UHGV virus genome: UHGV-0120180
Length of the DNA: 11,186 nucleotides
Reading direction: 5' to 3' (one strand)
Origin: a virus
Made by a program: the position numbers. Numbering within the stretch: the stretch's first letter is position 1; each line of letters begins with the position of its first letter. Below, piece by piece: positions 3,001-11,186 of the stretch.

Positions 3001-6000
3001 GCGGTCTCTGGTGGAAAAGTTGTTATTCCCAAAGCGATGATTTATGACGCGGTGATTGAAACACTGGTGTCGCGGAAGGTTGTGGCAGATGAAGTAAAAG
3101 CCGGGGTAAGTATCACGTCGCCTGTTATCCGGAGTGCTGTTATTCAGAACGGGAACTTTCAGGTTGATTCTCAGGGTAACCTGAATATTGGTGGCCTTTT
3201 TAGTGTTACGTCGCAGGGGCAACTGACAATTCGTTACTCTAATCAGAATGTTGGGCTGGTGATCCGCAATGATAAAATTGAAGTTTATGACCAGAACGGA
3301 CGCCTGGCTGTTCGCATAGGCAGGTTAAGCTGAGCCGGAGGCTGACATTGGCAGAATATGGTTTTGCAATATACAACAGAAACAATGTTAATGTTACGGG
3401 CGTGCTTACTCCCATATTTTTCCTGGACAGGTTTACGGCGGAGTCGGGATCAAAAACGTATACGAATAAACCAGAAGGGAAAACATTGCAGGCAGTCTGT
3501 TCATTATTTCCGTGGAATAATGTATTTAAGGACCGGAAAGTACCGAAGATAACCATTAATGGCAATACGGTGACGTGGTCGAATCTTGAGCAGGGGATGG
3601 GGTCATATATTTATACATTCTGGGGGTGAGTTGTATGTATGGTTTAAGCATTACGAAACCAGATGGCAGCTTGTGGATAAGCCCGGGGTTTACGCCTCAG
3701 TGTCTGATCAATAAGGGAACTATTCCGGCGACTGAGAAGGCTTTTTTTAAAACATCAATCCCGTCAGGAAAAAGTTGTTTTTTCTTTATCAGAACAGAGA
3801 AAAAGGCCGATGTCATGTACACACATGAACAGATTGATGGATATCATGCCTTAAGGCTTCATCAAATTGTCAGGGGAACGAATCCTGGTGTTACGACTGT
3901 TTATGCTTTTGCGAATATGGTTACTCAACCTTCTGAGTATGGTATTGCCATGTATAACCCGTCGGGTGAGATGATTTACCATGGCGAAATGATGCTGCTT
4001 GACGCGAAGTTAATACCTGTTGATATCAAATTTGAAAAAGACCTCGGATATCCATGTGCAATTATGCCTGCACTGGTTGGGTATTATAACTGGCAGCGTA
4101 CACCTTATGACCGACCGATTTACACCACATCAACGGGGGCTACAGGAAATAAAATATATTCCTGTGAGCATTATTCCGGTCGTGCAACATGGGATATTCG
4201 GAAGCCGTATATAGATAAAGTGCTGGTCATTAATTCATCAATATATGACTGATATGCCTGTCAGTATGAATATTAAGTAATAAAACTAAATTCATCTTAG
4301 ATAATACGGGGTTATTTTATTATAGGAAAAGTCTAAAAATGAAACATGCCAGAATTATTTTTGCGTGCACAACTTTTGTGATGAGTTTTGTAGCAGCCCC
4401 TGCCTGTGCAGCACAAGGTGACAGTACAGTTTCTTTCGGATACGCTCATCTTCAGCTCTCTGGACTGAACAATTTTGTTAAGGATTTAAGTCTTTATAAT
4501 CTTGATACTTTTAACCGTTTTACAAACAGACACTACTTCAATTCAGGCGAATATGCAGATGCTTCTGTCCGGGGGCATGATGGCAAAGGCAAATCTCCTC
4601 AGGGGATGAACATCAGGTATCGTTATGAGATAACGGATGAGATTGGTGTTATAACATCTTTTACATGGGCGCGTTCTATGACTAATGCGCAGGCATTTAT
4701 TGATGTTAACCCAGGAGATGAATCCAGAGAGGTTAAAAATCCGGCAGCTTCAGGAAGAACAGATATCAGAGCGAATTACTGGAGCCTGTTAGCGGGTCCT
4801 TCGTGGCGGTTTAACGAATACCTCAGTGTGTATGCAATGGCTGGTATGGGGGTTGCAAAAGTCACCACTGACTTGAAAATTAACGACAATCTTAATCATG
4901 GTGCCGGTAGTTTTTCTGAAAGCAAGAGTACTAAAAAAACAGCACTTGCATGGGCTGCTGGTGCACAATTTAACCTGAATGAAAGTGTTGCTATGGATGT
5001 CGCGTATGAAAGCTCCGGATCCGGTGACTGGCGCACGAGTGGGGTTATTGTAGGCATTGGCCTGAAATTCTGAGTAATACCCGACAATATGTCATAACCC
5101 GCTGTGATAGCGGGTTTTTTGTTGCCCGTGCAGGGCAAAAATCGTAGATTATGCGCGGGTGCCTTTCGGCTGATGGCTGGAAGGTGAACCTGAAGGCCTG
5201 ATGTGGAAAGGCCCCGAGTCAACTTTAATGTTAACCCGAGGCCCTAACCATCATACCTTAAGCAAGTAGAAGGTTAGCGCCTCTCCACTCAGGAGGCAAG
5301 CGCTATGTCGCAAAAATCGCTCATCACCGTCACAATTTGTATGACGGTAATCTTCACCATCTGGATGTTACACGGCTCGTTGTGTGAGTTCCGGCTGAAT
5401 TTGTGGGGAGCGGAGTTTGCGGCGTTCTTACAGTGTAAGCAGTAGGAAAACCGCGACGGGGACAAAAGTCCCCGTCAACTGGTTGCTGAGGTTCAGCCGA
5501 TATGGCACCCGTTTCAGGTGAGAGAGAGGTGGTTTTAAGTCAGCCAGTGATGCGCGTAAGTACATTGATTCACATCGTGATGAGCTTGTTCGTCATGTGA
5601 AGGAGATGCGGGAGATTTCGCGTGAGGAGCAGCGTAACGCCACTAACCGCGACCGCACCGGACCAGAACGCCGCAAAGGGGATGTTTCGCCGGAGCAGTT
5701 CAGTGATGCGTTTGGTTTCCGTGGTGTGCAGTTTGGTAATTATGTGGAAGGTCCGCGTCGTCAGGCTGATTTGAACCGGGCTTATGACTCGCTGCATGAC
5801 CTGGCTGACGTGCTGAACGTTCCGACAAAAGCGCTTTCCCTGAATGGTCGTCTTGGGCTTGCTTTTGGTGCCCGTGGTAAGGGTAAGGCGGCGGCACACT
5901 ATGAGCCGGGTGAGGTGGCAATCAACCTGACAAAAGGTAACGGACCGGGGGCGCTGGCCCACGAATGGTTCCATTCACTGGATAATTATTTTGGTCGTTA

Positions 6001-9000: not shown

Positions 9001-11186
9001 ACAGTGGCAGAAAGTGTGGAAAGAGTTTGTTGAGGACGGAGGTAAAACCGGCTGGTTTAACATGGGTGACCTTGAAGGCCAGCAGAAGGAAATGGATCGC
9101 CTTGTATCGCTGGCGAAGGGAGGATGGAAAGGCCAGAGTATCGGTGCATGGCATTCGTTCCTGAACCTGGTCGAGGATGCCAACGGCGCGGTTGAAAACG
9201 CTCTGCGTCTTTCTGCCTATAAACACGCCCGTGATGCCGGTTTGTCACGCCAGCAGGCGGCATCTCTTGCCAAAAACATGACGGTGAACTTTAACCGTCG
9301 TGGTGAGCAGGGAGCGCTGATGAACTCGCTGTATATGTTTGCCAACGCCAGCATTCAGGGGACCGCAAACCTGGTGAGAACGCTCGGACATCTTAATGGC
9401 GACGGGCCGTTACTGGAGCGCCTTCGCTGGAAGAATCTCAATGTACCGCAGAAAATCGCGCTTGCAGCTGTGGGAGCGGGTTATCTGCTTGGCTCGCTTA
9501 ACCGCAGTGTGGCGGGTGAGGATGATGACGGGGTTAACTGGTACGACAAGGTGCCGTATCATGTGAAAGAGCGTAACCTCGTCATTATGAAATCGATGTT
9601 CGGGGGCAGGGCCGGAGAGTACTGGAGTATTCCTCTGCCTTACGGGTACAACGTTTTCTTCCTGCTCGGGCATACCTCTGAAGGTGTGGCAGCGGGCGAC
9701 CTGACGGCGTCCCGTGCTGCCGGTAATGTTGTCGGTGGTATCCTGGGGGCATTCAGCCCGATTGGCAGTGAGACGTCGGAAACGCTGTCCGGGGCATTGC
9801 TGAAAAATGCAGCACCGACAATTCTGCGTCCGTTTGCGAATCTTGCCATGAACGAAAACTTCATGGGGGCGCAGATTTACCAGGAGAACATGCCGTTTGG
9901 TACACCAAAACCTGACAGCCAGCTGGGAAGACGTTCAACGCCAGAAGCGTACAAGGCGTTTGCATCCTGGCTGAATGCGTTCTCAGGTGGCAGCCAGTAT
10001 CGTCCCGGCGCGGTGGATATCACACCGGAATCGCTGAAATTCTGGATTGACTATATCTCCGGAGGGACAGGGCGCTTCATTTCCAAAACCACGGATGCGG
10101 CGGTGAAATCGCTGCATGGTATTGATATACCGGAACAGCAGGTGCCCTTCCTGGGGAAAATTTCGGGTGAGGTGATGCCGTATGCAGACCAGCAGAAGAT
10201 GTACGACCGGATGACAGAGGTTGCGCAGTATCACGCAGAGCTGAAGAGTCTGACCGGTGCAGAAAGAACGGCGTTCATTGACGAGAACAACGGAAAATTG
10301 TTGATGAACGGGCTTATGCAGGATACCCGGAAGAGACTGAAGGATTTGCGCAAACAGCGCGATGCCATTTATGCCGACAGTTCTCTCAGTCTGGCGCAGC
10401 AGGCGGCGATGGTGAAATCGGTAGAGCGGGATATGAAGGTTGCCGTGGATCGCTTTAACCGCGAGTACAACAAAAAAGTGGGAGTGGATTAACAGAAATG
10501 GCCCCGTACGGAAGTGCGGGGCTGATTAAGAAATAAACACACATTAACCTGTAATAACCGGAGCTATTAACATATAGTCAGAAAGAGTATTTCATGTGAG
10601 ACAGAGAGCCGATTTATGTTTAATGAAGAAAAAGTTGCGTAAATGGCAGCGTATTTGCTGAAAAAACATGGCGGATCTATGCGTTTCATTAAGCTGATGT
10701 ATCTCTCTGACCGCAAAGCAATGGAGTTGTATGGTTTTCCCATTAGTGGTGATCATTATTTCTCTATGAACAAAGGACCCGTTTTATCGCAGACATATTC
10801 TTTGGTTAAGGATGGAAGCGAAAACGAGTACAGTCCGTGGGAATCATGGATATCTGATGTAGCGGATCATAAGGTTGAAATGTGGCGTACATTTTCTTCT
10901 GTTGATGAGCTGGGGGAGTTATCGCCCGCAGAAATAGAGTCAATGGACATAATTTTTGGTCAATATGGAGGTTGGGATGCGTTCAGGCTTTGTGATGAAA
11001 CTCACAGAATTTGCGGTGAGTGGCGCGATCCGCATGGTTCATCAATTCCAATCAGCCTTAAGGATATATTTATTGCTCTTGGAAAGTCGCCAGAAGCAGC
11101 AACAGTAATGGCGAATAGGTAAGCGACTCGTCAGAACCGTATTGATATTTACTGAGAGCTCAGATCAACTTTCCAGGGCAACAGAT

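Follow-up and report, generated by a model that had tools for sequence, protein, structure and literature searches.

A 1631-codon reading frame in a decaying 933W-like prophage, identified by sequence comparison as the 3′ remnant of a known giant polyvalent virion protein gene

The viral genome UHGV-0120180 is an 11,186-nucleotide (nt) stretch of DNA, referred to here in its full length as the window, and it is dominated by a single very large open reading frame (ORF) on the plus strand (5597..10492, GTG start, 1631 amino acids). An earlier note on this DNA had proposed that the ORF is a complete gene for a giant, possibly undescribed polyvalent effector or a novel defence or anti-defence protein. 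Comparison with related phages and prophages leads to a different picture and identifies the ORF, at the level of sequence, as the C-terminal 58% of a ~2,793-residue giant polyvalent virion protein of 933W-like (Sepvirinae) phages. The family is already known, annotated and experimentally studied, and the copy in the window is truncated. We put the probability at roughly 85% that the ORF is the 3′ 58% of a giant virion gene which was left behind by a deletion in a defective prophage, and that it is most likely a recent pseudogene that has not yet decayed.

The whole ORF matches positions 1163–2793 of the 2793 positions of the PHROG 616 profile. In a BLASTP comparison it aligns without gaps and with 97% identity to residues 1176–2806 of the VT2-Sakai protein NP_050570.1 (2806 residues as annotated), and it is 97–99.6% identical to annotated giant genes of 933W-like Stx phages and prophages. 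The giant gene is present in 427 of 5,426 complete E. coli genomes, and a megablast search of 50,697 phage records returned 198 that match the ORF region; among the phage matches listed, all begin at window position 5524, that is 73 nt 5′ of the GTG. Of the LPD5 domain only the tail is left: residues 2–38 of the ORF correspond to positions 109–144 of the 144-position Pfam profile, and the domain is complete in the VT2-Sakai protein (residues 1064–1213). A full frame of ~2,790–2,810 amino acids with its native start and a complete LPD5 is therefore not what the window encodes. The idea of a complete giant-protein gene had to be abandoned, as the ORF comprises residues 1163–2793 only and homology continues 5′ of its start, and the family is not undescribed either, given the near-identical annotated genes and a published full-length orthologue. 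The same applies to the notion that the protein begins with a zincin-like domain: in the intact 2806-residue protein the zincins lie in the middle (residues 1297 and 1564), and they seem N-terminal here because 1,162 residues have been deleted. Natural forms of ~1,600 residues seemed to exist in Salmonella (P0015, a ‘1605-aa’ entry), which would have spoken for a dispensable N-terminal half, and were rejected as candidates, since the locus (L014 5831–14818) encodes a real ORF of 2,995 amino acids and the entries are thus partial calls. The protein collection concerned lists no family member longer than ~1,660 residues, and the lengths and architectures that it gives for giant proteins are unreliable.

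Apart from a gap of 6,595 bp, the window is collinear with the UCPROB-002, PhiR12_3, VT2-Sakai and UPEC-245U prophages. In pairwise blastn, window 1–5525 corresponds to positions 4103–9626 and window 5524–7928 to positions 16222–18626 of the undeleted locus L003, and comparisons with PhiR12_3, VT2-Sakai and UPEC-245U place the break identically. The resulting features are the following:

5524..5525, no strand: deletion junction, with 2 bp of strict microhomology in an imperfect 8-bp repeat, GGTGAGAG, at both parental breakpoints

5502..5600, plus strand: 32-codon fusion ORF, consisting of the native orf66 ATG and about 8 codons, then giant-gene sequence out of frame

5597..10492, plus strand: 5′-truncated giant-gene remnant, 1631 codons plus stop, equivalent to residues 1163–2793 of the intact protein

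In intact relatives the tail-tip fibre gene is followed by two small membrane genes, lom, hok, orf66–orf70 (VT2-Sakai) and the 8.4-kb giant gene. The deletion, the length of which is not divisible by three, took orf66 past about eight codons, the whole of orf67–orf70 and the giant gene up to codon ~1138. ORF79 (Sp5), which is located directly upstream of the giant gene in intact phages, is wholly gone from the window, and the cut runs through LPD5, from which ~108 profile positions were removed. The translation of the 32-codon fusion ORF is MAPVSGEREVVLSQPVMRVSTLIHIVMSLFVM, followed by the stop; the start of the orf66 homologue in L003 is at 9603, equivalent to window 5502, and orf66 of VT2-Sakai is the gene of 133 amino acids that normally comes after hok. 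The TGA of the fusion ORF (5598–5600) overlaps the GTG at 5597 (ATGTGA). In the frame of the giant gene a TGA is present at 5519–5521, just left of the junction, and GTG 5597 is the first start codon past the junction and not the native start.

According to the mechanism that we propose, a single illegitimate recombination event deleted the 6,595 bp and thereby fused the beginning of the gene that follows hok, out of frame, with the giant gene at codon ~1139; lost along with this segment were the N-terminal 1,162 residues, most of LPD5 and the native start together with its ribosome-binding site. The position beside a type I toxin, which had been pointed out for the ORF, finds its explanation here as well: intact relatives have five genes between hok and the giant gene, and the two are adjacent in the window because the same deletion removed the intervening genes. 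Separately, the window was seen to be a mosaic. Right of the junction (5524–11118) it is 99.7% identical to the UPEC-245U prophage (L017), whereas the part to its left (4130–5525, lom–hok) is only 85% identical to UPEC-245U and 96% identical to UCPROB-002, a contrast which indicates recombination between related prophages.

What remains of the giant protein has a well-defined domain architecture:

5600..5710, plus strand: LPD5 fragment, last ~37 residues (Pfam)

5654..6430, plus strand: zincin-like metallopeptidase domain 1 (CLCA_X-like), with HEWFHSLD at nt 5960–5983

Residues 199–278: LPD1 (Pfam, E 9e-24), the C-terminal helices of zincin domain 1

6584..7036, plus strand: zincin-like metallopeptidase domain 2, with HEIIH and E445 as candidate third zinc ligand

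7358..7627, plus strand (residues 588–677): MuF_C (Pfam PF18819, E 7e-18, 65.1 bits against a gathering score of 27.6)

7637..10489, plus strand (residues 681–1631): conserved C-terminal module of ~950 residues, mostly helical, which includes LPD38

9536..10153, plus strand (residues 1314–1519): LPD38 (Pfam PF18857, E 1.6e-47, 162.5 bits, profile positions 2–189 of 189)

LPD1, MuF_C and LPD38 all score above the Pfam gathering scores and, together with the LPD5 tail, they bear out the assignment to the polyvalent proteins: several effector-type or LPD domains are combined in one product, and the gene is located among phage late and virion genes. A tape-measure or fibre protein had been named as the family that would speak against this assignment, and no such match was obtained for the ORF with either Pfam or PHROG. 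Other elements of the earlier description also proved accurate. The frame is open throughout, and both HExxH motifs are present, HEWFH at residues 122–126 (nt 5960–5974) and HEIIH at residues 389–393 (nt 6761–6775), the chance expectation for such a motif in a 1631-residue product of this composition being ~0.036. A recognizable ATPase motif is lacking, as a Walker-A motif was found neither in the 1631-residue ORF nor in its full-length VT2-Sakai relative. The proposed role in defence or anti-defence is a different matter: a PADLOC scan gave no match for the ORF or its neighbours, and nothing supports such a role.

Conservation of the HExxH motifs among homologues had been set as a check, and both motifs are kept. 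A search with residues 30–560 against 1.84 billion cluster representatives yielded 5,882 matches at E ≤ 0.001, the best 150 of which are mostly 2,000–5,700 residues long. For motif 1, H101, E103, H122, E123, H126, E213 and E220 are invariant in 142 of 142 representative segments (48–76% identity), and D129 is kept in 139 of them. For motif 2, where median identity is 25%, H389 is present in 54 of 56 segments and E390, H393 and E445 in all 56; the His, Glu and His of the motif are invariant in alignment A3. Both motifs are thus conserved and probably catalytic. The two zincin domains share weak internal similarity. Domain 1 matches the NCBIfam model CLCA_X (NF041907) with an E value of 2.2e-43 over model positions 3–245 of 250 and reaches 148.5 bits against a curated cut-off of 260; judged by this match it is homologous to CLCA_X, yet not a member by the NCBI threshold. 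With the CLCA_X zincins (Lenart et al. 2013) and the phage-type metallopeptidase (MPTase) clade, for which a His ending strand 2 and an Asp three residues past HExxH have been described (PMC5512222), it shares the HExxH followed by Asp (HEWFHSLD), the His on the preceding strand and the occurrence in long phage or plasmid proteins. AlphaFold2 places the HExxH of domain 1 and the conserved Glu residues in helices that follow a small β-sheet, and the order of the predicted elements would fit a zincin core (helix, small β-sheet, HExxH helix, helix with the Glu) in both domains. Foldseek searches of the Protein Data Bank (PDB) with the zincin domains gave nothing significant, anthrax lethal factor appearing only with E values of 0.7 and 2.6, and a sequence search of the PDB gave nothing meaningful (best E 0.38).

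The C-terminal module (residues 681–1631) is conserved to ~34% identity among the 120 homologues listed, which stem from Salmonella, Photobacterium, Halomonas, Amphritea and metagenomes and carry ART-PolyVal, methyltransferase, inorganic pyrophosphatase or LPD3 domains N-terminal of it. An alignment of the module from 38 diverse homologues has invariant positions that include a YARHAPERN...GGSGM stretch. Within nt 8027–8101 (residues 811–835), which read YARHAPERNAHI...PDGGSGMT, residues A811, A814, R817, N818 and G832–M835 are the same in all 38 sequences, at least 90% of which retain H813 and E816, so that this cluster looks like a putative functional site. By inference, the LPD38 module may be an unchanging scaffold through which effector domains of various kinds would reach the virion. 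The predicted model of the module of ~950 residues is confident, but no solved structure is related to it; this gap concerns the whole family and is not specific to the window. A protein of 981 residues that consists of the module only is encoded in a metagenome-assembled genome of Amphritea (P0046; L016 10001–12946). Its gene lies between genes for integrase, excisionase and recombination functions and small early genes, and there are no structural genes within 23 kb. In view of this early-gene setting without structural genes, we rejected it as an independent stand-alone module; it is probably another 3′ remnant of a giant gene that survived the decay of a prophage.

Essentiality and virion location of the intact protein are known from work on orthologues. 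Systematic gene deletions in phage Sp5 revealed that ORF80 (ECs1242, 2,793 amino acids) is needed for plaque formation and lysogenization, as is ORF79 (ECs1241) just upstream of it; deletion of either leaves DNA packaging intact and can be complemented (Mondal et al. 2016; PMC5155283). The phi24B protein gp47 (2,811 amino acids; LPD5, LPD1, LPD38 and MuF-C) is abundant in virions according to mass spectrometry, is invisible in the cryo-electron microscopy map and has been proposed to be a capsid-packaged ejection protein (bioRxiv 10.64898/2026.04.10.717836). The LPD38-bearing gp69 of the Bcep22-like phage JC1 (4,515 amino acids) is virion-associated, and the portal, capsid and head-closure proteins of JC1 resemble those of 933W. 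The class of polyvalent proteins and the LPD domains were defined by Iyer et al. (2017; PMC5512222), who described MuF-C as a predicted RNase-like domain of the BECR fold (PBECR), zincin MPTases as the commonest hub domain of polyvalent proteins with a proposed role in self-processing, and LPD38 as confined to polyvalent proteins of the phage type. On this literature the intact ~2,793-residue protein is a late product that is packaged inside the capsid and needed for infectivity, not for DNA packaging. We infer that it may exit the capsid alongside the DNA to act in ejection or as an early effector and that its two zincin domains, which it combines with a BECR-type RNase-like domain and the LPD38 module, probably serve self-processing.

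Among the known systems closest to the ORF is ORF80 of Sp5/VT2-Sakai itself (ECs1242; NP_050570.1, ‘LPD5 domain-containing protein’; orf71 of NC_000902), whose domains and domain order are the same and which also has the same place in the genome, after lom and before the end of the prophage. Unlike in Sp5, residues 1–1162 and the native start are missing from the window copy, as are the five genes upstream of it, ORF79 among them, and while Sp5 is an inducible, infectious phage, the prophage in the window is devoid of genes for terminase, portal and capsid. The LPD5/LPD1/MuF-C/LPD38 architecture and the phage group are also shared with phi24B gp47; this protein, however, is found in virions, whereas no virion exists that the remnant could join. 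The phi24B preprint labels MuF-C as a metallopeptidase; in our analysis it is the HExxH domains, both of them, that bear the metallopeptidase signatures, and MuF_C corresponds to the BECR-type domain of Iyer et al. The ‘DarB-like’ proteins Bcep22 gp75 and JC1 gp69 (~4,500 amino acids), giant virion-associated proteins of podoviruses with 933W-like portal, capsid and head-closure proteins, have the C-terminal LPD38 in common with the ORF (PHROG 10089, residues 1192–1519) but contain lytic transglycosylase, methylase, helicase and LPD3 domains, none of which is present in the ORF, and lack its LPD5/CLCA_X/MuF_C set. DarB of phage P1, a large protein that the phage head contains and that is injected together with the DNA, was a seed of the polyvalent-protein class. 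Its link to the ORF is a PHROG annotation label only, matched via LPD38, and the ORF has neither a methyltransferase or helicase match in Pfam nor a Walker-A motif. The virion RNA polymerase of phage N4 is likewise giant, packaged in a podovirus capsid, ejected and equipped with an MPTase domain, but no RNA polymerase module was detected by Pfam in the ORF.

The surroundings of the ORF have decayed further than the deletion at the junction alone would imply. Locus L010 belongs to the same lineage and extends further upstream; compared with VT2-Sakai (L013), it jumps at 5239/5240 from Rz (L013 7443) to orf55 (L013 15442). About 8.0 kb are thus missing in the lineage, namely the 3′ end of Rz, both terminase subunits, portal, orf52, the major head protein and orf54. 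Because genes for terminase, portal and capsid are missing, the delivery into a recipient cell that had been envisaged for the protein is impossible from this element. E. coli UPEC-245U harbours an undeleted version at the same ynfG site and with the same downstream genes, and its giant gene (8,379 nt) is 99.6% identical to the ORF in the window. Among the carriers of the deletion, L004 contains an IS3-type insertion sequence (IS) element, and in the metagenome carrier L009 (positions 1–3300) IS21- and IS3-family elements stand in place of the tail-fibre genes, which is a further, independent decay of the same prophage. By its gene content and location, the element in the window is a cryptic, decaying 933W-like prophage at ynfG. 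The insertion site, as seen in L004–L009 and L017, is ynfG (a truncated gene for a 4Fe-4S protein) beside ynfF and ynfE, and in the same loci the right arm carries genes for an IbrB-like protein, a PAPS-reductase/DUF3440 (IbrA-like) protein and an AntA/AntB antirepressor. The last 68 nt of the window (11119–11186) are the end of an IS66-family element within the 3′ part of the SocA/Panacea gene, and in L005 an IS66-family element occupies positions 13544–16129. In the other carriers the match to the window ends at 11118, and their Panacea protein has 174 residues; the corresponding ORF in the window (10643–11122) encodes 159 residues with a changed C-terminus.

An artefact of assembly or a chimeric contig had to be considered as the source of the junction, which is absent from the 5,426 complete E. 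coli genomes and the 50,697 phage records and the string of which was not found in GTDB species representatives or IMG/VR. The junction string is, however, identical in all six loci retrieved (L004–L009), two of them NCBI assemblies with multi-megabase contigs and four independent metagenome contigs, and an artificial origin is scarcely credible. Identity with the window is 100% for GCA_949768945.1 and 99.98–99.99% over 7.6–11 kb for the remaining five loci; the carriers, which include GCA_900449285.1, differ by no more than 2 nt in 11 kb. No record matched the 1631-residue product read from the GTG exactly; the exact 1,628-residue product read from ATG 5606 occurs in 82 blocks of the assembly collection. 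On these identities the deletion is genuine, goes back to a single event and is recent.

Since capsid, portal, terminase and ORF79 are all missing, the remnant is unable to perform the known role of its family from this element, and its present state suggests a copy without function. A promoter-like site was not found on the plus strand between 5000 and 5800, GTG 5597 is not preceded by a Shine-Dalgarno sequence, and ATG 5606 abuts AAGGAG with zero spacing. Relative to the nearest full-length allele the ORF has 18 nt differences (15 synonymous and 2 non-synonymous codons), most of which probably pre-date the deletion. The ratio of non-synonymous to synonymous substitution rates (dN/dS) against VT2-Sakai is 0.09, a low value that reflects purifying selection on the family and is barely informative on the time after the deletion, given that the carriers are nearly identical; a dN/dS value against PhiR12_3 was discarded because an indel had shifted the comparison out of register. 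Several points weigh against a dead gene. The frame of 4.9 kb is intact without any positive sign of decay, all domains from zincin 1 onward are complete, the ATGTGA stop/start overlap could support translational coupling and thus some translation, and read-through of the late operon could reach the ORF if Q and pR′ survive. With regard to the first of these points, little decay is to be expected, because the minute differences between the carriers imply that almost no time has elapsed. If the ORF were indeed still translated via coupling to the 32-codon ORF, by late transcription or read-through, it might keep a biological role, either because the LPD38 module lets the fragment enter particles of co-resident or superinfecting 933W-type phages as a substitute or a dominant-negative decoy, or as a free cytoplasmic zincin/RNase-like protein. 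The intact frame and domains past LPD5, the presence of the catalytic residues of both zincins, the ATGTGA overlap and the retained native ATG 5502 with GAGG 10 nt upstream are consistent with this, as is the occurrence of the allele in two genomes and many gut metagenomes (the 82 blocks mentioned above), and 933W-type prophages are so common in E. coli (427/5,426 genomes) that helper phages are plausible. Nevertheless, we regard continued translation with a retained role as unlikely: the carriers are near-clonal (at least 99.98%), so that recency explains both the spread and the intact frame, no promoter was detected, the deletion splits a domain and joins its two sides out of frame, further deletions and IS insertions are eroding the prophage around it, and no defence family was matched. 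Its most specific form, in which the remnant is made by termination–reinitiation from the 32-codon ORF and enters 933W-type Stx particles as a dominant-negative decoy of the essential full-length protein, we consider distinctly improbable; if it were true, a cryptic prophage would hinder the spread of Stx phages by poisoning assembly or ejection.

A complete, stand-alone gene of 1631 codons for a polyvalent effector or defence protein, with a zincin at its front and morons around it, could appeal to the polyvalent-protein domains found by Pfam and to the flanking hok and Panacea genes. This is very hard to reconcile with the gapless alignment to the C-terminal 58% of a protein of 2,793–2,806 residues, with homology that runs 5′ of the start codon up to the deletion junction, with the cut LPD5 and with the absence of the arrangement from complete E. 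coli genomes (0/5,426) and phage records (0/50,697), and the ~1,600-residue Salmonella form that might have served as precedent is a partial entry of the 2,995-residue ORF. We consider such a gene highly improbable. Read as the remnant of a giant virion gene, the window itself is of little consequence, as it holds a recent, pseudogene-like remainder of a gene for which hundreds of E. coli genomes and phage records carry an annotation and whose full-length version has already been studied by genetics and proteomics. Its lesson is a corrective one: a long open frame in which catalytic motifs are conserved can pass for a novel effector although it is no more than the not yet decayed end of a larger gene, and both the ‘zincin-first’ architecture and the adjacency of hok are artefacts of one deletion. 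The gaps that deserve attention are those of the family, i.e., the structure of the LPD38 module and the roles of the two conserved predicted zincin domains.

The genes around the ORF are as follows:

5305–5445: Hok/Gef gene (Pfam HOK_GEF, E 4e-8; PHROG 251, ‘MokW-like’)

10643–11122: SocA/Panacea gene (E 1.9e-19)

2065–3333 and further upstream: fibre genes, separate from the ORF at 5597–10492

The type I toxin and the Panacea-like neighbour reported previously were thus both recovered by Pfam. Upstream of the ORF lie genes for an internal virion protein, the tail-tip fibre and Lom, a position that is the same as in VT2-Sakai. An Rfam scan of the window gave no match at gathering scores and hence no curated Sok or hok mRNA element. 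The hok/mokW-type locus (5200–5480) contains a GC-rich 10-bp hairpin (5454–5477) after the Hok ORF, and the hok region of the window is also present, without annotation, in VT2-Sakai and PhiR12_3.

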